Assembly (NCBI GenBank): GCA_945935525.1
Contig: CAMERI010000002.1
Span: 188,482 to 252,481, forward strand
Length of the DNA: 64,000 bases
DNA from: an uncultured bacterium
GTDB lineage: Bacteria > Bacillota_I > Bacilli_A > RF39 > UBA660
Direction of reading: 5' to 3'
Made by a program: the position numbers and the translations under genes. Below the pieces are notes generated by a model that was given only the letters and a program-made list of their open reading frames with translations, was not told where the DNA came from and did not search any database. Shown piece after piece: positions 13,888 to 53,989 of this stretch; the first letter of the stretch is position 1, and the number at the start of each line of letters is the position of its first letter.

Positions 13888-13964
13888 GGGCCTGTAGCTC
13901 AGCTGGTTAGAGCGTTCGTCTGATAAGCGAAAGGTCGATGGTTCAAGTCCATTCAGGCCCACCA
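13888..13964 (+). tRNA. tRNA-Ile (anticodon GAT)
   Basis: Cloverleaf with 7-bp acceptor stem GGGCCTG/CAGGCCC, anticodon loop CTGATAA, encoded CCA. Confidence 0.9.
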
Positions 13965-13973
13965 TTAATAAAT

Positions 13974-14049
13974 GGCCCGTTGGTGAAACGGTTAACACAC
14001 ACGCCTTTCACGCGTGCATTTATGGGTTCAAATCCCGTACGGGTCACCA
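13974..14049 (+). tRNA. tRNA-Glu (anticodon TTC)
   Basis: Acceptor stem GGCCCGT/ACGGGTC, anticodon loop CTTTCAC, encoded CCA; close to Bacillus tRNA-Glu. Confidence 0.9.
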
Positions 14050-39270: not shown

Positions 39271-40458
39271 CTAAAAATTAAACATTAACCATTCTGGTTT
39301 ATATATCATTAGTATTCCAATTGTAATCATTATAAGTCCACCTATTAAGTGTGAATACTTTCCATATTTATTTGATATTACTTTTATCTCTAGTGTTTTC
39401 ATAGCAATTATAAATATTATAATATCATCTATCATAAAGAATAAAATATATATTAATGAATAAAGTATTTGTCCAAACTTGCTTACTTCATTTATTGTTA
39501 ATATTTGTGTGAACATTACAGGTAAGCCTAATGAGCAAAGAAGTTCTACGATATTAACTGAAGCTGCTAATAATATTATTCCTAAAAGTGCTAGTATGAA
39601 TGATTTTTCTTTAACAATTTTTTGAATTGATTTTATTATTTTCTTTCTATTTTTTGTATCTACTACTTCACATCCATCATCTTTTTTAAAGAAGAATGAG
39701 TTTACTTGAATTACACCAAATAAAACGGCTACGAATGCAATTGCAACTCTAATATATAGTATTTTATTTAAGAATACTGCTAGATTTAACCAAGATATTA
39801 GGAATAAGAAATATACTAGAGCTGATGATACTAAGAATGTTATGCCTAGAGTCCACATTCTTTTTCTATTTTTCATTCCAAGTAACATTGATATAAGAAA
39901 TAAAAGTATCCACATTGCACAAGGATTGAATCCATCAACTAAGCCAATCACAACTGCTGATAGACCTATTGAAACATCTTTTATTTTTTGTTTACCAAGT
40001 ATAGGTATTTTCACTTCTGATTCTTGATAATCTGTTTTTGTTTCTTCTTCGTTTTTATCTTCAACTATTCCAAGATAAATACCTACTTTATCTTTATAAT
40101 TTATATTTTTATAATATTCTACTGCATTTTTTATTCTTTCTGGAGTTATTTCTTCATCGAATCCTGAGATTACTGTTTCTCCAATTATCAAATATGGAAT
40201 TCCACTAGATGTATCATTTAATATGTCATGCACTTTTGAATATTTTTCTTGATTATCTTTGTTATACCACACTTCATATCTATGTATTTTTATGTAATCA
40301 TTTTTCTTCAAATAAGATTCGAACCATTTTTCCTCTTCTTTACAGTGAGGACATCCATCACCATAAAATAAATAAATATTTAAATCTTTTTCACTTCCAA
40401 ATACTAAGAATGGAATAAATAGAAGTAAAAATAATAATACTTTTAATGTCTTTTTCAT
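39271..40458 (-). CDS. thiol:disulfide interchange protein: extracytoplasmic thioredoxin-like domain fused to a CcdA/DsbD-type membrane domain
   Basis: Signal peptide; GCPHC active site; membrane domain contains the NPCAMW motif. Confidence 0.7.
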   Translation of the reverse strand: MKKTLKVLLFLLLFIPFLVFGSEKDLNIYLFYGDGCPHCKEEEKWFESYLKKNDYIKIHRYEVWYNKDNQEKYSKVHDILNDTSSGIPYLIIGETVISGFDEEITPERIKNAVEYYKNINYKDKVGIYLGIVEDKNEEETKTDYQESEVKIPILGKQKIKDVSIGLSAVVIGLVDGFNPCAMWILLFLISMLLGMKNRKRMWTLGITFLVSSALVYFLFLISWLNLAVFLNKILYIRVAIAFVAVLFGVIQVNSFFFKKDDGCEVVDTKNRKKIIKSIQKIVKEKSFILALLGIILLAASVNIVELLCSLGLPVMFTQILTINEVSKFGQILYSLIYILFFMIDDIIIFIIAMKTLEIKVISNKYGKYSHLIGGLIMITIGILMIYKPEWLMFNF

Positions 40459-40709
40459 AGTTCACCTTCTATAATCCTTATAAATTCTTCCTTTTTGTGT
40501 TCTCCACATAGTCTGGTTATTTCTTTGTCATTTTTGTAAAAGATAAATACTGGAAGAATTTTACCTACGTTAAATTTTTCTATATCATCAAAATCAAAGT
40601 CGTAGTCTTCATATTCTATATCTTCATATTCTTTTTTTAACTCATTTATTATCTTATTCATTATTATGCATGATGGACATCCTAGTGAGTTTATTTTTAC
40701 TATTTTCAT
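40455..40709 (-). CDS. small thioredoxin-family protein
   Basis: CPSC redox motif; 84 aa. Confidence 0.6.
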   Translation of the reverse strand: MKIVKINSLGCPSCIIMNKIINELKKEYEDIEYEDYDFDFDDIEKFNVGKILPVFIFYKNDKEITRLCGEHKKEEFIRIIEGEL

Positions 40710-41508: not shown

Positions 41509-41534
41509 AAAAAAAAGATTGTTGTTACAATCTT
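41509..41534 (-). terminator. Rho-independent terminator ending the vWA/kinase/PurA-like operon
   Basis: AAGATTGT-tgtt-ACAATCTT followed on the minus strand by TTTTTTTT. Confidence 0.55.
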
Positions 41535-42460
41535 CTTCCTTTGTTTGTATTTGGTTTTAATGATAAACTCATTCCTATATCTGTGTTAACATTTGCTATC
41601 TCAGTACTATTTGATAATTCTTGTAATGACTTTGTTACTCCTTCAATTCTAGTAGTAGTTTGCCCTCTTCCTTTCATATCAAGAGCATATACTTCTAAAT
41701 CTTGTTTTTGAATAGCTATAACTCCTAATATTAAATCTATAATTGCCTTTTCTTCTGGTATTCTAACTACATGCTCTGGAGGTAATACCTCTTTCCATGC
41801 ATCAGTAATATCACTTCTAAATTTATTTCCACAGTATCTATTTAGCATTACAAATACATTATCTTTAAATTTCTTATTTAATGCTTCAAATGGTTTATAT
41901 CCTTTTTCTGCTGGAATTCCTATACCTTCTGCTTGACTAAGATTTAAATCTTTATAAGGTGCTTCATCCGCTACAAAGAATACCATTGGATTTGCATCTT
42001 TTCTAAATTCTGTATTGTTTGCTAAGTAATGTGCCATTAATTCATATGATTCTTGTACTTGTCCTCCCCCAGCTCCTTCAAGAACCAACTTTTCTAAATT
42101 ACTATCTATTTCTAATCCTTTAGCAAAGTCATTTATTTGTATTGGATAATCATCTGTGTACGCGTCTCCAACTGCACAAATTGATATATCAAAATCTTTT
42201 AAATAACCTTTTTGTTCTAATTCTCCATAGAACATTGGAAATTTATCATATACTAATCTTGCAAAATTAATATTTGAACCTGTAACATCTAATACTATTA
42301 CAATTGGTGTTTTAGCATCACTTTTTATTATTTTTCCCTTTGGTAACATTTTACTATCTAGTGAAGTACTATTTAACTTGCTTGATGAATAATCGCTTGC
42401 TCCCCAACTATCATAACTACTTCCACTATAAACATCTCTATCATAACTATAACTTCCCAT
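41525..42460 (-). CDS. von Willebrand factor A (vWA) domain protein with a Ser/Tyr/Asp-rich N-terminal tail
   Basis: MIDAS-like VLDVTGS motif; N-terminus MGSYSYDRDVYSGSSYDSWGASDYSSS. Confidence 0.7.
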   Translation of the reverse strand: MGSYSYDRDVYSGSSYDSWGASDYSSSKLNSTSLDSKMLPKGKIIKSDAKTPIVIVLDVTGSNINFARLVYDKFPMFYGELEQKGYLKDFDISICAVGDAYTDDYPIQINDFAKGLEIDSNLEKLVLEGAGGGQVQESYELMAHYLANNTEFRKDANPMVFFVADEAPYKDLNLSQAEGIGIPAEKGYKPFEALNKKFKDNVFVMLNRYCGNKFRSDITDAWKEVLPPEHVVRIPEEKAIIDLILGVIAIQKQDLEVYALDMKGRGQTTTRIEGVTKSLQELSNSTEIANVNTDIGMSLSLKPNTNKGRRL

Positions 42461-42469
42461 ATAATCCTC

Positions 42470-43504
42470 CTAATTTACTTTTCTTTCTAGTGTTTTAAAT
42501 CTTTGATGACCATACACTTCATTTCTTATTTGTATTAGTTCGTTCCATAATGCCCACGCATCATTTTCTTTTTCACTTAGTAATTTTCTAATGAATGACC
42601 TTACTTTCACATCTACATTTACTGGCAAAGCTACCCTATCCATATCACCTCCTAATAAATCTATTGCTAACATACCAACTGCATATATATCCACATTTGG
42701 AATGACTTTTGCATCCTTACCGACATATTTTGGTGAGAATGTCTCATTTACTATTTTATATTTACTCGTTTCTTTATTAGCTTCTTCAATACAAAGTGAA
42801 TAATCAGTAACTGACACATTGTGAGTAGATGGGTCAATTAAAACATTTTCTCTTTTTATATTTCCATGAACGATTTTCTTAGAATGCAAATATCCAACTA
42901 CTGAAAGTAATCTTTCTAATATCCAGCAAATATGTTCACCGCTTAAATTTCCATAATATTTTTTTATTTCTTCTATAGTGAGTCCATCTTTTCTTTCTAC
43001 TATTACGGCATTTCTGCCATTTATTTTTGCTTTTGAAATTAATTTTGGTATTGATAAATGATCTAACTCACTTAGAATTTTTCCTTCTTCTTTTATCAAA
43101 TCATCATCTGATTCATCGCTTGCAATTTTCAATTCTATTAATTGTTCATCAAGTAGTCCCTCATAAACTGTTGCAACGTCTTCACATCTTGATACTTTAT
43201 AAAATTTATATTCTCTTCCTTTTAATTCAAATTCAAATAATGGAGATGCTCTTTTTAAAAGTTCTTTTTCATCTAATATTTGGTATGTTCCATCTTGAAT
43301 TTCTTTTTGTGCGAGAGTGTAGTACTCATTTAATATTTTTGTTGCTTTTTCTGCTAACGCTTTTTCTTCTTCTTTTGCTAAATCTGGATGACATATTTTT
43401 GCATAATTTCTATACACCTTTTTTATTTCATTTTCATTACTACCAAATATCTCAATTGGCCTTTTAGCATTTATAAGTAACTCTGTAATTTCTTTGATAG
43501 ACAT
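42470..43504 (-). CDS. J-domain protein fused to a protein-kinase-like domain (catalytic HRD replaced by HGN, so probably a pseudokinase)
   Basis: J-domain IKKVYRNYAKICHPD (HPD motif); kinase-like lobes with beta3 Lys (IELKIA), alphaC Glu, catalytic loop VHGNIKRENVLID, a TDY segment in place of DFG, and SPKYV. Confidence 0.6.
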   Translation of the reverse strand: MSIKEITELLINAKRPIEIFGSNENEIKKVYRNYAKICHPDLAKEEEKALAEKATKILNEYYTLAQKEIQDGTYQILDEKELLKRASPLFEFELKGREYKFYKVSRCEDVATVYEGLLDEQLIELKIASDESDDDLIKEEGKILSELDHLSIPKLISKAKINGRNAVIVERKDGLTIEEIKKYYGNLSGEHICWILERLLSVVGYLHSKKIVHGNIKRENVLIDPSTHNVSVTDYSLCIEEANKETSKYKIVNETFSPKYVGKDAKVIPNVDIYAVGMLAIDLLGGDMDRVALPVNVDVKVRSFIRKLLSEKENDAWALWNELIQIRNEVYGHQRFKTLERKVN

Positions 43505-44043
43505 TTTATATTTTCACCTCCATCTAATATGATGTCTGCATCTTTCTTTTGTGGTTCAATGTGTGTTCTATATATGCATAAAATTACATCATTAAAGTAT
43601 TTTCTTATTTCTTCTTCACTAATTCCATAACTTTTATCTCTTTTTATTCTTCTTTCAAGAGAAATGTTTTTATCTATTTCAATAAATACTTTTAATGTGT
43701 CTCTTAAATCTTTTAATGCATCTATCGTGTGTAATCCTTCAAATATTACTCTTCCATTTGTTCTAATAATTCTTGATTTGTCTACTCTTTTATTTGCTGA
43801 TAAATCATATGTTGGAATTATTACTTTTTTCTTTTCAATTAAAGTTTTTGAGTCATTTACAAACTCTTCAATATTAAAAGCATTTGGTAAGTCCATTAAG
43901 TATCCTTTTCTAGATAGTGGTATATCTTTTTTATCTTTAAAATACCAGTCTTCCTCAAAATGACTCATATTATATTCTTTCGATAAATAGTTACTTAATG
44001 TAGTTTTGCCTGAGCAAGTCATTCCAGAAATTATAATATTCAT
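43471..44043 (-). CDS. uridine/cytidine-kinase-like P-loop nucleoside kinase
   Basis: Walker A GMTCSGKTT; IPTYDLSANKR resembles the Udk VPIYDFSTHSR motif. Confidence 0.65.
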   Translation of the reverse strand: MNIIISGMTCSGKTTLSNYLSKEYNMSHFEEDWYFKDKKDIPLSRKGYLMDLPNAFNIEEFVNDSKTLIEKKKVIIPTYDLSANKRVDKSRIIRTNGRVIFEGLHTIDALKDLRDTLKVFIEIDKNISLERRIKRDKSYGISEEEIRKYFNDVILCIYRTHIEPQKKDADIILDGGENIKCLSKKLQSYL

Positions 44044-45437
44044 TTTAAAATCCTTTCTAATTTTTGATTTCTATTTGGCCCTACGCCTATTAAAGATATT
44101 TTTGAATTTATTAAGTATTCTATTAGTTCTATAAAATTTATACATTCTTCTGGTAAATCTTCTACTCTTTTAATATCACTTATATCTTGATTCCATCCAT
44201 CAATTGTTATATATAATGGGAGCGTTTTAGCTAAATATTTTCTTAAATCCGGACTATTTCTTTTTATATTTTTAATTATTATTTTATTTCCATCTTTGTA
44301 ATATTCGAATGTTTCTTTAAACTCTTCATCTATTTGTCCTATGTAAATGTATGAGTCACAAATCTTAATTTCTTTAAATGGTGACAATCTATCAAGTGCC
44401 GATAAGAAGAAATAATCATTTTTATTAATAGAGTTAGCATATCTTGTGAGTACTGCATCAAACCATCCATATCTTGGCCTTCCTTGATAATAACTTTCTG
44501 ATTGGTTTTCATCCTTTATTAATGCTTCAACTTTCTTATCATAAGTTGGAAGAACTCCCATACCATGTCTACTTGTTAATGCAGATATAGCACCTATCTT
44601 ATGAATATTAGTATTTAATTCGTTTGCTAAAACTATCCCATTTTGATTTGTTGTATTTAATAATGTTGTGTTTGGCCTTATACCATAATCTCTATCAATT
44701 AATAACCCCTGTGAGCCTTCAAATACAATATCACTGTCAGTGTGAAATGTTCTTATATCTTTTGTAACATTGATGAAACCACTTCTTAGTAAATTCTCAT
44801 AGCATCTAATTATGTATTCTCTATTTTTAGATTCAGTTAAGTGTGATATGTCATCAGTTCTAATGAGTCTGCTTATAAGTTCTTTATTTTGAGAACTCTT
44901 ATAAAATTTTTGAGCATAACCAAATAATTCTTTTAATTTTTCTTTGTATACTTCACTATTGAAGTCACTCATCAATAGTTTAATTCCTGTTTCTTCAAAT
45001 GTTCTTGTTACTTCACTTACACCACTTCCAACAGAACCCCTTCTATTATTCTTACTTTCAATTTCTCTTAAATTATCAATTAATTTGTGATAAGGTGTCA
45101 CGATAGGTACTTCACTATCTACAAATACTCTTTTTAATATTTCTTCTCTTGGTACTTTTGTTTTTTCACTTAAGAAATTACTTTCACTAATTATGTTAAA
45201 GAGATTTACCACTGTGTATTTCGATAGAAAAGTTCTAGTGTCTTCATTTAGAAACGCTGAACCCAGTTGACTAAATTTGTGTGTTAGACCATCATTGACA
45301 ACTGTATGACTTGCTTGACTTCCACCATTATATCTAACGTTTTCTTTTATATCTTTAGTACTTGCTAGATAATCAACTAAAGTCCCTTTTCCTTCGTCAC
45401 CAAATAATGTTCCAGATACTATATAACTATTATTCAT
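44040..45437 (-). CDS. divergent adenylosuccinate-synthetase (PurA)-family ligase
   Basis: PurA motifs GDEGKG(T), QASHT (PurA has NAGHT), GSVGSGVSE (PurA has TGRGIGP), ALDRLS (PurA has KLDVL) and a C-terminal IGVGPNRNQ. Confidence 0.75.
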   Translation of the reverse strand: MNNSYIVSGTLFGDEGKGTLVDYLASTKDIKENVRYNGGSQASHTVVNDGLTHKFSQLGSAFLNEDTRTFLSKYTVVNLFNIISESNFLSEKTKVPREEILKRVFVDSEVPIVTPYHKLIDNLREIESKNNRRGSVGSGVSEVTRTFEETGIKLLMSDFNSEVYKEKLKELFGYAQKFYKSSQNKELISRLIRTDDISHLTESKNREYIIRCYENLLRSGFINVTKDIRTFHTDSDIVFEGSQGLLIDRDYGIRPNTTLLNTTNQNGIVLANELNTNIHKIGAISALTSRHGMGVLPTYDKKVEALIKDENQSESYYQGRPRYGWFDAVLTRYANSINKNDYFFLSALDRLSPFKEIKICDSYIYIGQIDEEFKETFEYYKDGNKIIIKNIKRNSPDLRKYLAKTLPLYITIDGWNQDISDIKRVEDLPEECINFIELIEYLINSKISLIGVGPNRNQKLERILK

Positions 45438-46329
45438 ATAAGAAACTCCTCCATCCTTTTAATGCTTTTTCTAATTTAGGTCCTTGTATTTCATCTTGTA
45501 ACATAAATGTTTTATATCCATATAAATACATAAGTTCTAAATCTTCCATATCAGGTAATGAAATTTCGGACTCTTTATTTAACGATGAAAATAATCTCGA
45601 TGCACATATGGTTGATGGATATTTTTTTATTATTTCTTGTAATGCTTTTAAGACATTTATATCATCTTTACATTCGAGCCATAAATCATCTCTTGCTGCC
45701 ATAGGTTGTATTGCTATATTATTTGATAAAGCAAAGCGTAAACCTTTTAATGATTCTATTTTTGCAACTATTGTTGCATTTGTATTTAAAGAAAGTATTT
45801 CTACTAAATCATCAAATGATTCTAAAAATGATGCCATATAATTATTCATTCCTAATTCTTTTGATTCTTTTATGAATTCTTTATCAAGTTGAGTTAAGTA
45901 TCCTTCTATTATTAAACTTTTTGCTTTTACATTTACTGATTGTCCTTTTCCTACAGCTCTTTCAGGAGGTTCTTCTAAAATAATTTTATTTCCTTTTGTA
46001 TGCATAATATTTGATGTATTCCCACCTCTAAAAATTACTTTTGCTGGATATTCTATATCTATTTTGTGATTTAGTTCTATTGCTTCATAACTAGTATCTG
46101 CCCAACTATTAACTCTTAGTTGTCTTCCCTTTAAATCTATCCATATTTTTTTGTTAAATTTTTCTTCTAATGATTTTAATATTTCAATTATTTTCTTTTC
46201 CTCTAAAAGTTCATTCACTCCTGTATTAAATCTTACTTCACTAATGTATTCACTTGACATCATTTCTTCTACTGCCTTCTTGTTATGAATATGTGGAAGA
46301 GTTCCAATTAATTTTATATCCTTTTTCAT
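45430..46329 (-). CDS. pyruvate-kinase-like TIM-barrel protein lacking the PK C-terminal domain
   Basis: Collinear with the PK barrel motifs: KLIGTLP (TIGP-like), EVRFNTGV (RLNFSHG-like), IDLKGRQLRV (DTKGPEIR-like), AKIESLKGL (KIEN-like), MAARDDLWLEC (MVARGDLG-like). Confidence 0.55.
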   Translation of the reverse strand: MKKDIKLIGTLPHIHNKKAVEEMMSSEYISEVRFNTGVNELLEEKKIIEILKSLEEKFNKKIWIDLKGRQLRVNSWADTSYEAIELNHKIDIEYPAKVIFRGGNTSNIMHTKGNKIILEEPPERAVGKGQSVNVKAKSLIIEGYLTQLDKEFIKESKELGMNNYMASFLESFDDLVEILSLNTNATIVAKIESLKGLRFALSNNIAIQPMAARDDLWLECKDDINVLKALQEIIKKYPSTICASRLFSSLNKESEISLPDMEDLELMYLYGYKTFMLQDEIQGPKLEKALKGWRSFLYE

Positions 46330-46338
46330 ATTTATTCC

Positions 46339-46362
46339 TTTATGTGTATTTTTTACACTTTA
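46339..46362 (-). promoter_or_regulatory. putative NrtR-like operator (copy 2), 15-30 nt upstream of the PK-like gene's start codon
   Basis: TATGTGTATTTTTTACACTT is identical over 20 nt to the copy at 47078-47099; core palindrome GTGTA-n5-TACAC. Confidence 0.4.
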
Positions 46363-46382
46363 TATTGCTTTTTAAAAGCATT

Positions 46383-47057
46383 TTAAAATATGCTTTTCTT
46401 TGTTATTTTTGAATTGAATTTATATAACTTAGCAGGTTTTTTTCCTTTATAAGTTATTGTTTTATTTATATCTTCAATAAGCTTTAAACTTAACATTTTT
46501 TTTCTGAAATTTCTTCTATCAATTTCTTTATTTAATATTGACTCATATACATTGTGTAGTTCTGGTAAAGTAAATTCATAAGGAAATAATGATTTTAGAA
46601 TATCACTAGATATTATATCCTTTTTTAATTCATCAATTCCTCCTTTTAATATTTCATTATGGTCATATGCTAATTTTGGAACTTCATCTAGTGAAAACCA
46701 ATCTGAGTTTGAAGTCTTGTTTGTTTTTGTTATTAGTTCTGCTTTTTTTATGTCTATAACGCCTATAAATAGTATAGCTATCAATCTTTTTATTGGTGAC
46801 CTATCTAATTTATCATAGATGCCGCATTGTCTTAACTCAATATTATCTAAACCAGTTTTTTCTTTTAATTCTCTTTTTGCCCCATCAATTAGTAATTCAT
46901 CATTATATAGTCCACCACCAGGTAATGCCCAATAATCTTTAAATGGTTCATTCGTTCTTCTGATTAATAATACTTTTGTTACTCCCTTATCAATTGTAAA
47001 TATAGTACTTACTACATGAATACCAATGTTTTTATAAAGCGGATTTTTTAATTCCAT
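46383..47057 (-). CDS. NrtR-family regulator (NUDIX domain plus C-terminal winged-helix DNA-binding domain)
   Basis: Nudix box GGLYNDELLIDGAKRELKEKTGL; C-terminal FTLPELHNVYESILNKEIDRRNFRKKM...KPAKLYKF matches the NrtR wHTH pattern. Confidence 0.7.
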   Translation of the reverse strand: MELKNPLYKNIGIHVVSTIFTIDKGVTKVLLIRRTNEPFKDYWALPGGGLYNDELLIDGAKRELKEKTGLDNIELRQCGIYDKLDRSPIKRLIAILFIGVIDIKKAELITKTNKTSNSDWFSLDEVPKLAYDHNEILKGGIDELKKDIISSDILKSLFPYEFTLPELHNVYESILNKEIDRRNFRKKMLSLKLIEDINKTITYKGKKPAKLYKFNSKITKKSIF

Positions 47058-47075
47058 ATCATCACTTCCATTTTC

Positions 47076-47104
47076 ATTATATGTGTATTTTTTACACTTG
47101 TCAA
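47076..47104 (-). promoter_or_regulatory. consensus sigma-A promoter of the NrtR-like gene, with an operator palindrome in the spacer
   Basis: TTGACA, 17-nt spacer, TATAAT on the minus strand; the palindrome GTGTAtttttTACAC at 47083-47097 lies between -35 and -10. Confidence 0.5.
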
Positions 47105-47113
47105 TATATTTTA

Positions 47114-47149
47114 AGAAAAATAAAAAAGAAGTTACTATTTAGCAACTTC
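47114..47149 (-). terminator. Rho-independent terminator after rny
   Basis: GAAGTT...AACTTC hairpin followed on the minus strand by TTTTTTATTTTT. Confidence 0.5.
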
Positions 47150-51947: not shown

Positions 51948-52068
51948 ATTTTTATATTAACACTAAATAAGTCATTTTTTTACCTTTTTATATAAATTTA
52001 ACAATTAATTTACTTTTTTGAAGTGTTTTATTCTTTGGTGTCTAATTATAATATTAGGGAGGAATAAA

Positions 52069-52794
52069 ATGAATGATATATTTTCAGAACTAATATTCAA
52101 GTTTACTATTATAAAACGAAAAGGTTTTGTAAAATCATTATATTATGATAGTGGTGCAGCAGGAAAAATGTTTGAAACCCTGCTAAACAAAAAACTTGAC
52201 AATAAATGTTTGCCTGATTTTGAATCGATTGAAATTAAAACATTATCAAATTCTAACAAATATCCAATTACACTTTTTAGCTGTTTGCCTGTAAAAAATG
52301 GATATACACCAGGCAAAGTTATAGAATATTTATTAAATAATTATGGATATAATAAAGACATTGATTGTAAATGTTTAATGATAAATGTTAAAGATGGCAA
52401 AATTAAATACTGTAAAAATAAATTTGGATTCATGATTAAAGTTTCAAATAAATGGAAGAAAATTTACCTTTGTATTTTTTATAAGAATAAAATATTTGAT
52501 ACAAGCATTCATTGGAATTTTAATGAAATTCACAATATTTTTAATACAAAATTAAAACATTTAGTTTGTGTAAAATATATACAAAATATCACTCACAGTG
52601 ATAAAATGTTTTATTATTATAATATTAATTGCTATGTTCTTAAATCATTTGATGACGTTTTGTTTGCAATTAAAAAAGGTATTATTACAATTAATTTTAA
52701 CTTTTCTATTTCAAATGGAATTGTTAAATATCATGGGATTAATTTTGTTATATATGAAAACGACTTACCTTTCATTTATAAAAAAATTATGTAA
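52069..52794 (+). CDS. MutH/Sau3AI-family PD-(D/E)xK endonuclease (orphan; no methyltransferase partner in the window)
   Basis: GAAGKMFETLLN...LPDFESIEIKT matches the MutH/Sau3AI motifs (G..G.LE; D-x6-E-x-K); GGGAGGA RBS before the ATG at 52069. Confidence 0.55.
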   Translation: MNDIFSELIFKFTIIKRKGFVKSLYYDSGAAGKMFETLLNKKLDNKCLPDFESIEIKTLSNSNKYPITLFSCLPVKNGYTPGKVIEYLLNNYGYNKDIDCKCLMINVKDGKIKYCKNKFGFMIKVSNKWKKIYLCIFYKNKIFDTSIHWNFNEIHNIFNTKLKHLVCVKYIQNITHSDKMFYYYNINCYVLKSFDDVLFAIKKGIITINFNFSISNGIVKYHGINFVIYENDLPFIYKKIM

Positions 52795-52868: not shown

Positions 52869-52945
52869 TGGTCGGGAAGACAGGATTTGAACCTGCAACC
52901 CCTTGGTCCCAAACCAAATGCTCTACCAAGTTGAGCCACTTCCCG
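52869..52945 (-). tRNA. tRNA-Pro (TGG)
   Basis: Cloverleaf; anticodon loop TTTGGGA; encoded CCA. Confidence 0.85.
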
Positions 52946-52951
52946 ATCTAA

Positions 52952-53028
52952 TGGTGCGCCCAATAGGAGTCGAACCCATAACCTTTTGATCCGTAGTCAA
53001 ATGCTCTATCCAATTGAGCTATGAGCGC
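52952..53028 (-). tRNA. tRNA-Arg (ACG)
   Basis: Anticodon loop CTACGGA; acceptor stem GCGCTCA/TGGGCGC. Confidence 0.85.
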
Positions 53029-53095
53029 GTTTAAATTTCCCTCGGAATCGCTTTGAAATTTTCTGTCTTGCATTTGTATTATTAATTTAACAAAA

Positions 53096-53171
53096 TGGTG
53101 GCTTCAGTTGGAATCGAACCAACGACACCAAGATTTTCAGTCTTGTGCTCTGCCAACTGAGCTATGAAGCC
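53096..53171 (-). tRNA. tRNA-Phe (GAA)
   Basis: Anticodon loop CTGAAAA. Confidence 0.85.
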
Positions 53172-53174
53172 ATT

Positions 53175-53250
53175 TGGCGGTTCCGACGGGACTTGAACCC
53201 GCGATCCCTCGCGTGACAGGCGAGTGTGATAACCACTACACCACGGAACC
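53175..53250 (-). tRNA. tRNA-Asp (GTC)
   Basis: Anticodon loop CTGTCAC; discriminator G. Confidence 0.85.
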
Positions 53251-53253
53251 ATT

Positions 53254-53330
<77 letters not shown>

Positions 53331-53358
53331 ATATTTGAAATTCACTGTACTTATCATA

Positions 53359-53451
53359 TGGCGGAGGAAAAGGGATTCGAACCCCTGCGCCAATTTCTTG
53401 ACCTCCCGGTTTTCAAGACCGGTCCCTTCAACCAGACTTGGGTATTCCTCC
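53359..53451 (-). tRNA. tRNA-Ser (TGA)
   Basis: Long variable arm; anticodon loop CTTGAAA; discriminator G. Confidence 0.85.
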
Positions 53452-53466
53452 AATAATATTTAAAGT

Positions 53467-53555
53467 TGGTGCCCCAGATCGGACTTGAACCGATATGAGC
53501 TTTTACACTCGCAGGATTTTAAGTCCTGTGCGTCTACCTATTCCGCCACTGAGGC
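53467..53555 (-). tRNA. tRNA-Leu (TAA)
   Basis: Long variable arm; anticodon loop CTTAAAA; Leu-type D-arm. Confidence 0.85.
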
Positions 53556-53563
53556 ACATAAAT

Positions 53564-53639
53564 TGGTGTCTCGCTGGGGATTCGAACCCCAGACCCCTTG
53601 ATTAAAAGTCAAGTGCTCTACCGGCTGAGCTAGCGAGAC
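53564..53639 (-). tRNA. tRNA-Lys (TTT)
   Basis: Anticodon loop CTTTTAA. Confidence 0.85.
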
Positions 53640-53658
53640 GTTCTATATGATAAATTTT

Positions 53659-53734
53659 TGGTTGCCTCGGCTGGATTCGAACCAGCGGAATGCAAGAGTC
53701 AAAGTCTTGTGCCTTACCACTTGGCTACGAGGCA
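53659..53734 (-). tRNA. tRNA-Gln (TTG)
   Basis: Anticodon loop CTTTGAC; U1-A72 as usual for Gln. Confidence 0.85.
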
Positions 53735-53744
53735 AAATTACAAG

Positions 53745-53828
53745 TGGTGGAGAGAGGTGGATTCGAACCACCGAACCCGAAGGAACAGATTTACAGTCTG
53801 CCGCGTTTAGCCTCTTCGCTATCTCTCC
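53745..53828 (-). tRNA. tRNA-Tyr (GTA)
   Basis: Long variable arm; anticodon loop CTGTAAA. Confidence 0.85.
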
Positions 53829-53831
53829 AAG

Positions 53832-53907
<76 letters not shown>

Positions 53908-53912
53908 AATTA

Positions 53913-53989
53913 TGGTGGGCGATGAGAGACTCGAACTCCCGACCCCCTGCTTGTAAGGCAGATGCTCTAACCAACTGAGCTAATCGCCC
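53913..53989 (-). tRNA. tRNA-Val (TAC)
   Basis: Anticodon loop CTTACAA; acceptor stem GGGCGAT/ATCGCCC. Confidence 0.85.

Follow-up and report, generated by a model that had tools for sequence, protein, structure and literature searches.

The minus-strand operon at positions 41525-47057 of a 64,000-nucleotide (nt) stretch of DNA from an uncultured bacterium (GTDB lineage Bacteria; Bacillota_I; Bacilli_A; RF39; UBA660; assembly GCA_945935525.1, contig CAMERI010000002.1, positions 188,482 to 252,481; the whole stretch is hereafter the window) is the form that a widespread mobile module takes, with additions, in one lineage. Within PADLOC, Pfam, NCBIfam and the searchable open literature the six-gene combination has no description, in agreement with the initial annotation of the window, in which it was not recognised as a described system. 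The conserved unit of this module is a triad made up of a divergent ligase of the adenylosuccinate synthetase family (PurA-like), a von Willebrand factor A (vWA) protein and a J-domain fused to a degenerate protein kinase (J-kinase), to which a pyruvate-kinase-like protein (PK-like), a uridine-kinase-like protein (Udk-like) and an NrtR-family regulator are added in the window. With a confidence that stops somewhat short of even, we favour the reading that the triad and its accessories form a chaperone-coupled nucleotide ligase module that responds to adenosine diphosphate (ADP)-ribose and nicotinamide adenine dinucleotide (NAD), and that serves salvage or counter-defence. If the triad acts as one machine, it would represent a new specificity in the PurA family and a new coupling of a metabolic enzyme to Hsp70, and if the module acts on NAD or ADP-ribose, it would be an added player in the phage-bacterium NAD+ contest, one that is also fixed in common human-gut Bacilli.

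A mobile triad shared by bacteria and phages

A profile of the PurA-like family, scanned over one genome per species, yielded 80 loci, in which open reading frames (ORFs) were called and searched with the window proteins. The order PK-like, PurA-like, Udk-like, J-kinase, vWA is intact in 27 of the 80 species genomes (Bacilli, Clostridia, one Muribaculaceae and one Ignavibacteriales), and the core triad occupies 59 genome loci in more than ten phyla, its hosts including Firmicutes, Bacteroidota, Ignavibacteria, Myxococcota, Spirochaetota, the candidate phyla radiation (CPR), Acidobacteriota, Planctomycetota, Actinomycetota and one archaeon. Specifically, the core, often with the PK-like gene directly upstream of the ligase gene, is found in Myxococcota, Leptospiraceae, Saccharibacteria, Paceibacterota and Moraniibacteriota, as well as in Acidobacteriota, Planctomycetota, Actinomycetota, Geobacter/Syntrophaceae and one archaeal metagenome-assembled genome (MAG). 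Clustering of the neighbours placed the vWA gene at 59 loci and the J-kinase gene at 53, followed by PK-like (40 loci, a frequent accessory), Udk-like (28 loci, an accessory mainly in Firmicutes) and NrtR (11 loci); a NadE/NMNAT-like fusion, an M41-peptidase-like protein and a zinc-ribbon protein were the other recurrent neighbours. Gut-metagenome assemblies contain the exact PurA-like protein of the window in 404 blocks, and its context there never varies.

The module recurs in viral genomes as well. In IMG/VR, the PurA-like profile found 70 loci, many of them on contigs of 100-500 kb; at 61 the vWA gene adjoins the ligase gene, and 46 of these also have the J-kinase gene. In a collection of annotated phages, 240 records match the PurA-like protein, 202 of which are Mycobacterium phages. 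Checks of single cultured phages confirmed the triad in one Bixzunavirus (SilverDipper gp265-268); in one Rhizobium phage and one Vibrio phage they confirmed the vWA/PurA-like pair. The hallmarks of the three families are recognisable in SilverDipper gp265 (HPD, HGA, DWC), gp266 (MG..., DVTGS, GDE) and gp268 (RHG, WQG, THLD), which are annotated as 'serine/threonine kinase', hypothetical (as is gp267) and 'PurA-like adenylosuccinate synthetase', respectively. PHROGs keeps the three families apart as phrog_3043 ('kinase'), phrog_2971 (the phage vWA family, 'unknown function') and phrog_1211 (labelled PurZ), and the labels that phage genes of the module currently carry, PurZ and 'serine/threonine kinase', are probably misleading. 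The triad of the roughly 200 sequenced Bixzunavirus phages, which grow on Mycobacterium smegmatis, is directly testable.

The module is thus common to bacteria and phages and has been mobile over evolutionary time. The initial annotation had taken as the unit an enzyme trio (nucleoside kinase, PurA-like ligase and PK-like protein) paired with the vWA protein and the J-kinase. The neighbourhood searches bear out that the combination recurs, with the five-gene order in 27 genomes and the triad counted at 59 genome and 61 viral loci, but they do not bear out the unit: the triad is conserved, and the PK-like and Udk-like genes are accessories.

Organisation of the operon

All six ORFs lie closely packed on the minus strand, beginning with the NrtR-family gene (46383-47057, 224 amino acids (aa)) and continuing with the PK-like (45430-46329, 299 aa), PurA-like (44040-45437, 465 aa), Udk-like (43471-44043, 190 aa), J-kinase (42470-43504, 344 aa) and vWA (41525-42460, 311 aa) genes. 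The PK-like and PurA-like genes overlap by 8 nt (45430-45437), the PurA-like and Udk-like genes by 4 nt (ATGA, 44040-44043) and the Udk-like and J-kinase genes by 34 nt, with a gap of 9 nt between the J-kinase and vWA genes. A promoter of the sigma-70 type, TTGACA-17-TATAAT (47104-47076, minus strand), lies upstream of the NrtR gene and is the sole 12/12 consensus match in 39-50 kb. Promoter-like sites as a whole are not enriched (54 found against 72 expected from shuffled sequence), so that only the 12/12 site carries weight and internal 'promoters' are given none.

The upstream boundary of the unit is the rny terminator hairpin (47152-47125, minus strand), which spans the rny stop codon, was matched in the terminator scan, precedes a U-run and folds at -13.5 kcal/mol (z = -3.0 against shuffled controls). 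The downstream boundary, after the vWA gene, is a second hairpin with a U-run (41509-41540, minus strand) that folds at the same energy of -13.5 kcal/mol (z = -4.3 against shuffled controls); its G-C pairs, fewer than 3, were too few for the scan to pick it up. An Rfam search of the operon found no RNA element, and a riboswitch or RNA leader was dropped on that basis. The initial account of the architecture therefore stands in all its parts: the six minus-strand ORFs in one compact operon, the start/stop overlaps at 45430-45437 and 44040-44043, the single consensus promoter and the two bracketing terminators. So do its six domain assignments, which were examined with Pfam for five of the proteins and with AlphaFold2 models and Foldseek for the vWA and PK-like proteins.

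A PurA-family ligase without the aspartate pocket

The PurA-like protein is a member of the adenylosuccinate synthetase family (Pfam PF00709, Adenylsucc_synt, 4.1e-75; best PDB match PurA 4m0g, 9e-64), with scores below the cut-offs of the NCBIfam PurA models (210 bits against 402 for NF002223 and 191 against 396 for TIGR00184) and of the PurZ model NF038379 (28 bits against 300). For a residue audit, E. coli PurA was aligned with 124 vWA-linked members of the clade, using residue numbers and roles that we take to be those of the E. coli PurA structures. D13, K16, H41, Q224, T239 and D333 are invariant in the 124 sequences and the P-loop GDEGKG is kept, so that guanosine triphosphate (GTP) binding, guanine specificity and the phosphoryl-transfer step are presumably intact. 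By contrast, the aspartate loop TTGRRR is replaced in every member by (W/Y/F)(Q/N)G-x-(F/P/I)R, in which T300 has become W, Y or F and T301 Q or N, R303 is deleted and R305 is hydrophobic. The ligands of the 5'-phosphate of inosine monophosphate (IMP) are lost as well, T129 being V or C and the R143 column unconserved or gapped, and N38 is changed to Gln and V273 to an invariant His. When members without an adjacent vWA gene are included, the canonical TTGR is present in a single one of 152 clade members, and the PurA-like gene is linked to one specific vWA family at 126 of the 152 loci.

The clade shares with PurA (EC 6.3.4.4) and PurZ the fold, the family, the P-loop, the catalytic Asp/His pair, Q224, T239 and the guanine-specifying Asp, but because the aspartate pocket and two IMP 5'-phosphate ligands have been lost, it appears to be neither PurA nor PurZ; it differs from them also in the Gln and His at positions 38 and 273 and in lying nearly always beside a vWA gene. 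We infer from these residue patterns that the enzyme would use a different nitrogen nucleophile on a different, or differently anchored, nucleotide. The ligase is accordingly the divergent PurA that it had been called initially (a strong Pfam match, scores under the NCBIfam cut-offs and remodelled residues), and the PurA/PurZ-type joining of an amino acid to the base that had been envisaged for it is doubtful, given that the aspartate pocket is gone.

The PurZ/Z-genome pathway was ruled out as an identity for the operon by the PurZ score of the window protein (28 bits against a cut-off of 300). In RefSeq and PHROGs, vWA-linked phage PurA-like genes are labelled '2-aminooxy adenylosuccinate synthetase' (PurZ) (NC_031080.1, NC_054715.1, PP083315.1 and phrog_1211). 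Considering the same score together with the absence of the aspartate loop throughout the clade, this label is probably wrong.

Two further observations concern the ligase gene. Six loci in Myxococcota/Pseudomonadota MAGs (L046, L049, L052, L053, L056 and L061) encode a PurA-like protein with the same clade signature and no adjacent vWA gene, in the company of a HAMP-SpoIIE (PP2C) phosphatase, a Ser/Thr kinase-AAA_16 protein of 1,200-1,300 aa, an amine oxidase and a type III glutamine synthetase. On a metagenome contig of the same species as the window (L162, 12253-13651), the PurA-like gene is split into two ORFs of 326 and 157 aa, the cause being either a frameshift or misassembly.

A vWA protein paired with a J-domain pseudokinase

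The vWA protein has no match in Pfam, NCBIfam or PADLOC, or by sequence in the PDB. Its AlphaFold2 model, built with 27 homologues (predicted local distance difference test (pLDDT) 77, predicted template modelling score (pTM) 0.80), matches integrin I and vWF A3 domains in Foldseek with a probability of 1.00, and a motif like that of metal-ion-dependent adhesion sites, D58-V-T60-G-S62, is invariant, accompanied by a GGGGQxxESYE loop and a GDE motif. The family, for which Pfam has no model, spans about 1,200 clusters at 50% identity; in a search of 1.84 billion cluster representatives, 1,166 matched it at E <= 1e-10. The N-terminus, MG(G)xx(Y/W)(D/S)xD(V)Y (MG..YDRDVY in the window), is conserved from Firmicutes to phages and is predicted to be disordered (residues 1-22), and Firmicute members share a C-terminal KGRRL. 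A start with MG is found in 108 of 149 representatives and some complete ones start with MS or MC, which weakens the candidacy of Gly2 as an obligatory N-terminal nucleophile.

In the J-kinase, Pfam recognises a DnaJ domain (1.1e-06), with HPD at residues 39-41, and a Pkinase domain (1.9e-18) in which HRD is replaced by HGN; a weak fvmX5 match (E = 0.011) falls on the J-domain region. Among 93 vWA-adjacent homologues, none has the HRD Asp (HGN is found in most bacterial and HGA in most viral copies), the catalytic-loop Lys/Asn and the DFG Asp vary, and 71 have HPD. Judged by these residues, the J-domain is live and the kinase domain catalytically dead, the latter in keeping with the initial call of a degenerate protein kinase. 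Five loci (L037, L039, L042, L045 and L050) have, in place of the J-kinase, a classical AAA+ ATPase (PF00004) together with a 247-aa protein. That the vWA protein is partnered by either a J-protein or an AAA+ ATPase suggests that an adaptor (the vWA protein) and a remodeller may together act on the ligase.

Two known kinds of system invite comparison. The TerY-P triad (Anantharaman, Iyer and Aravind 2012), to which the operon had been likened at the outset, reportedly consists of the vWA protein TerY, a Ser/Thr kinase and a PP2C phosphatase. The module likewise pairs a vWA protein with a kinase-fold protein near genes of nucleotide metabolism, but its kinase appears dead in 93 of 93 homologues, a J-domain is added and the vWA protein has no Pfam vWA or TerY match. 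No PP2C gene is present among the six genes or in the conserved neighbour clusters of vWA-linked loci, the HAMP-SpoIIE gene occurring only with the vWA-less PurA-like loci of Myxococcota, and the window contains no Ter genes. The resemblance therefore fails on the active kinase, the PP2C and the Ter neighbours, and membership in TerY-P was rejected on the dead kinase and the missing PP2C. The MoxR-vWA ternary systems (Kaur et al. 2020, PMC7159879) resemble the module in combining a vWA adaptor, an ATP-driven remodeller and an enzyme or effector, and the AAA+ ATPase of five loci adds to the likeness, but the remodeller of the module would be Hsp70, recruited in trans via the J-domain, and the partner is a PurA-family ligase. 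MoxR is absent from the window and from the conserved clusters, the AAA+ proteins of the five loci belonging to PF00004. MoxR-vWA and FtsH ternary systems were dropped as identities, no J-domain, PurA or PK component being reported in that work (PMC7159879).

Accessory enzymes and proposed NrtR control

The PK-like protein matches Pfam PK at 1.1e-08 and scores 52 bits on the NCBIfam PK model against a cut-off of 432. Its AlphaFold2 model (pLDDT 90) has pyruvate kinases for all of its top 50 Foldseek matches, over the A and B domains (E ~1e-15), and its 299 aa hold the A barrel and the B domain and no C domain (PK_C), which confirms the truncated pyruvate-kinase-like barrel of the initial annotation. 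R33, N35, D65, K67, R72, K190, E192, D215 and S244 are invariant, and by resemblance to rabbit PK we take R33/N35, D65-x-K-G...R72, K190-x-E192, D215 and S244 to be catalytic. A full-length PK+PK_C gene lies 10 kb from the module at locus L084, so the PK-like gene is an extra copy (paralogue) there. The enzyme likely regenerates nucleoside triphosphate (GTP) from phosphoenolpyruvate (PEP). The Udk-like protein matches Pfam PRK (5.4e-17) and scores 103 bits on the NCBIfam Udk model against a cut-off of 180; its best PDB match is the uridine kinase of Thermus (1.4e-17), and NRK1, compared with a view to a possible nicotinamide riboside kinase, gives a weak N-terminal P-loop match (4e-5). At the position aligned to Y93 of the Thermus enzyme (U/C specificity) it has N84 in place of the His or Tyr of uridine kinases, and Asn is found there in at least 90% of module-linked homologues.

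The regulator has the two-domain make-up of NrtR, with matches to Pfam NrtR_WHD (PF21906, 1.6e-21) and NUDIX (PF00293, 5.8e-16). Its Nudix box, as read from the sequence, is degenerate (RELKEK), as is usual for NrtR. Two candidate operators are present in the window, identical copies of the 15-nt palindrome GTGTAAAAAATACAC, of the pattern GTGTA-N5-TACAC: the first (47083-47097) lies within the promoter spacer and the second (46344-46358) just 5' of the ribosome-binding site (RBS) of the PK-like gene. Across the 2.7 Mb of all collected loci the pattern has 16 exact sites, and for about 12 of them the position is either the interval from -35 to -10 in the module promoter or the stretch immediately 5' of the PK-like RBS. 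The window, L004, L011, L012 and L013 each have two copies, one placed exactly between TTGACA and TATAAT and the other beside the PK-like RBS; L008 and L009 have a single copy near the PK-like gene, Myxococcota L064 one in the divergent intergenic region of the module, and Saccharibacteria L075 one copy. Pairs of a related form, TGTGT-N7-ACACA, lie ahead of the NrtR gene in two phage loci (L089 and L090) and in Saccharibacteria L040. The operator placement is thus conserved in at least eight divergent loci, across phyla.

Published NrtR sites are 21-bp palindromes with a GT-N7-AC core (Rodionov et al. 2008, PMC2330246), which the pattern found here fits. As in the NrtR regulons described there, the regulator joins a Nudix domain to an NrtR winged helix, and the palindrome overlaps the promoter in an arrangement of apparent autoregulation; unlike in those regulons, the operon genes are none of the listed genes of NAD biosynthesis, NAD salvage or pentose use (PMC2330246). 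Table 1 of the survey (PMC2330246) includes the unexplained targets 'nrtX-nrtY', and the genera named there are not among the matches of our one-genome-per-species scan. The same work shows that ADP-ribose makes NrtR dissociate from DNA (PMC2330246).

Links to NAD metabolism and a proposed mechanism

Counting all cellular and viral loci, NrtR accompanies the module at 18 distinct loci. In the phage loci L103 and L139, the triad stands inside an operon of the order NrtR-NAMPT-vWA-PurA-like-J-kinase-NMNAT-like (388 aa, with a cytidylyltransferase-like domain), and L104 and L106 have the same gene set in a slightly different order. A NAMPT gene is found within 10 kb at ten loci, Saccharibacteria L067 included, and NadE is adjacent at four (L036, L040, L047 and L055), in some of them fused to an NMNAT-like domain. 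In the cultured Vibrio phage, a NADAR gene lies two genes upstream of the vWA/ligase pair. Ribose-5-phosphate isomerase B occurs three times among 150 flanking proteins sampled. In the Rhizobium phage RHph_TM2_3B (L158, 1905-4241), Nudix, PRTase_3 (ComF-like) and HAD genes precede the vWA/PurA-like pair; we take the PRTase_3 and HAD families to be members of the Ter-associated 'nucleoside-like metabolite' module, the sole Ter-like hint that was seen. The link of the module to NAD genes is strong, and it is not universal. Neither this tie to NrtR and NAD-salvage genes nor the frequency of the triad in phages had been noticed in the initial annotation, and the tie is a better contextual lead than Ter-like defence. 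Two side observations concern the same loci: a 417-aa nucleoside 2-deoxyribosyltransferase (NDT)-like protein is encoded upstream of the NrtR/triad genes in the phage loci L103, L139, L089 and L090 and occurs also in Saccharibacteria L040, and in L103 and L139 it is followed by a dNMP-kinase-like protein, likewise upstream of NrtR and the triad.

The phage operons recall the published NAD+ reconstitution pathways of phages, NARP1 (Adps+Namat), NARP2 (NAMPT+NMNAT) and NARP3 (PnuC+NadR-like), in that the triad is phage-borne and, at several large-phage loci, co-operonic with NAMPT, NMNAT-like and NrtR genes. They differ in that neither the triad nor the window operon includes a NARP enzyme, NAMPT and NMNAT-like neighbours being confined to some phage and CPR loci; the searchable papers on NARP1-3 mention no PurA-like, vWA or J-kinase component.

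From the anatomy of the operon, its conservation, residue patterns, operator footprint and NAD-gene neighbours we infer substrates, a chaperone role and a physiological purpose as follows. The PurA-family enzyme would bind GTP, transfer a phosphoryl group and ligate another nitrogen nucleophile to another, or differently anchored, nucleotide. The vWA protein would act as an adaptor and the J-domain as a recruiter of DnaK/Hsp70, which would assemble the ligase, activate it or gate it; the analogy is with vWA/AAA+ co-chaperone pairs such as the enzyme activases of the CbbQ/CbbO type, and in some lineages an AAA+ ATPase stands in for the J-protein. In Firmicutes, a Udk-type nucleoside kinase is added, which would supply the nucleotide, together with a C-domain-less PK that is translationally coupled to the ligase and would regenerate GTP from PEP. 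NrtR, encoded at the head of the operon, would repress transcription via the two candidate GTGTA-N5-TACAC operators, and given the release of characterised NrtR proteins by ADP-ribose, the module may be switched on when NAD+ is cleaved and may serve NAD/adenylate nucleotide salvage. In phages, the triad would be a partner of NAMPT/NMNAT counter-defence.

Several observations weigh against this reading and account for the reserve with which we put it forward. About 100 of about 140 loci, those of Bixzunavirus included, have no NAD-related gene within 10 kb, and some phage loci have only the vWA and PurA-like genes plus one for a small unknown protein. We know of no step in NAD synthesis or salvage that needs PurA-type chemistry, and the Udk-like protein is far closer to uridine kinase than to nicotinamide riboside kinase. 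The chaperone or activase role is drawn wholly from the analogy with vWA/AAA+ pairs. The window regulator scores 133 bits on the NCBIfam NtrR model, for which the equivalog cut-off is 400. Finally, NrtR-family regulators have been recruited to non-NAD pathways such as those of arabinose and xylose (PMC2330246, PMC4666351), so that the effector here need not be ADP-ribose.

Alternative explanations

A first alternative is that the module is a conflict or anti-phage system, in which the vWA/J-pseudokinase pair would sense infection and free the ligase and its feeder enzymes for the synthesis of a nucleotide analogue that is toxic or acts as a signal, the phage copies serving superinfection exclusion. 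Predicted conflict systems typically combine vWA, kinase and chaperone themes (Kaur et al. 2020, PMC7159879), the spread over phyla is patchy, serine recombinases flank three loci, and an ADP-ribose-responsive repressor would suit a second-line response to NAD depletion. Against PADLOC-DB v2, however, the six proteins produced generic Ser/Thr-kinase matches to the PD-T4-6, PglW and MAD6 kinases, a likeness that might be counted in favour of a conflict role, two weak matches (NrtR to PDC-S07, 1.9e-05; Udk-like to VakA, 1.6e-04) and nothing for the ligase, PK-like or vWA proteins, and there was no system-specific match. The 150 flanking proteins, taken from 59 bacterial loci, belong mostly to housekeeping Pfam families, with scattered PADLOC matches and the three serine recombinases, and display no defence enrichment. 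With no consistent PADLOC signal in the six and the 150 flanking proteins, a defence island was dropped, and co-location with such islands, raised in the initial annotation, found no support.

Nor does the operon look like an island that varies between strains. All 22 long contigs that have this exact rny also carry the module (one with the ligase split), none presenting an empty site, and its G+C content (0.25-0.30) is the same as that of the flanks, so that neither a strain-variable island nor the initial impression of an island could be maintained. Related species (L005, L006 and L011) share the synteny of rny, module and short-chain dehydrogenase/reductase (SDR) gene, but in L004, which represents the closest species, the module lies at another place. 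In this organism, the module is thus a fixed chromosomal operon at a housekeeping locus and not defence-island cargo. The setting of the phage triad inside NAD-salvage operons, from NAMPT to the NMNAT-like gene, and its carriage by Bixzunavirus suggest that a pro-replication function fits better than a conflict role, which we consider unlikely, while giving it serious weight.

A bolder form of the salvage reading would make the PurA-like protein the catalyst of a fourth, GTP-driven route for rebuilding NAD+, gated by Hsp70 through the vWA/J-pseudokinase pair, induced by ADP-ribose through NrtR, powered from PEP to GTP, and used by bacteria and phages against NAD-depleting immunity. In such a scheme ADP-ribose would be phosphorylated at 1'' and nicotinamide would displace the phosphate, the aromatic residue and Gln/Asn of the remodelled loop forming the nicotinamide site; alternatively, the enzyme might amidate a nicotinate nucleotide. 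We regard this proposal as a long shot.

Distinctly improbable is a third possibility, namely that the ligase is directed at proteins and attaches a nucleotide to an amine or other group of a protein, such as one on the N-terminal MG..YDRD tail of the vWA protein, with the J-domain and Hsp70 presenting or unfolding the target. The pocket for free aspartate is now lined by an aromatic residue and Gln/Asn, two IMP 5'-phosphate ligands are gone, the ligase is tied to one vWA family at 126 of 152 loci, the vWA N-terminus is strongly conserved yet predicted to be disordered, and unfoldases (the J-protein and the AAA+ ATPase) interchange as partners, all of which would suit such a function. Conversely, Gly2 is not invariant (108 of 149 start with MG, and some complete sequences with MS or MC), no vWA/ligase fusion was found among the best 150 representatives of the vWA family (none is long enough), and the nucleoside kinase and PK accessories suit small-molecule flux better. 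Nor, to our knowledge, does any PurA-family enzyme act on proteins.

The remaining two alternatives are hardly credible. Ordinary purine/pyrimidine salvage, by which the genes would be the organism's purA, pyk and udk paralogues with no function shared with the vWA protein and J-kinase, accords with the source annotations ('adenylosuccinate synthetase', 'pyruvate kinase'), with the many carriers that are reduced-genome gut Bacilli or CPR and dependent on salvage, and with catalytic residues intact in all three enzymes, but housekeeping copies were ruled out by scores far under the NCBIfam cut-offs (PurA 210/402, PK 52/432 and Udk 103/180 bits), the loss of the aspartate-binding loop in the whole clade, the full-length PK 10 kb away in L084, and the linkage of ligase, vWA and J-pseudokinase in more than ten phyla as well as in phages with purA-bearing hosts. 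A PurZ-like base modification, with the ligase producing a nucleotide substituted at N6 or N4 that would enter the DNA or RNA of phage or cell, could draw on the PurZ label of phage homologues in PHROGs and RefSeq, on the frequency of the ligase in large phages and on the NDT-like and dNMP-kinase-like genes upstream in some phage operons, but is contradicted by the PurZ score (28 bits against 300), by the dependence of PurZ on aspartate, whose pocket is missing in the clade, by the Z-genome companions DatZ, MazZ and DpoZ not being seen in the loci examined, and by chromosomal copies under NrtR at a housekeeping locus, which do not suit DNA modification.

Surroundings of the operon

Downstream of the SDR gene, the window encodes an 84-aa thioredoxin-like protein (CxxC) and a 395-aa membrane protein with an N-terminal CPHC (39271-40709, minus strand); this redox block is not conserved with the module outside close relatives. 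Elsewhere in the window, a tRNA pair lies at 13888-14046 (plus strand) and a cluster of 12 tRNA genes at 52872-53989 (minus strand), the latter explaining a G+C peak near 53-54 kb. Beside this cluster, on the opposite strand, is a gene for an MvaI/BcnI-type restriction endonuclease (52018-52794, plus strand; PF15515 in the contig annotation), which lies within a strongly AT-rich segment (G+C content 0.21-0.25).

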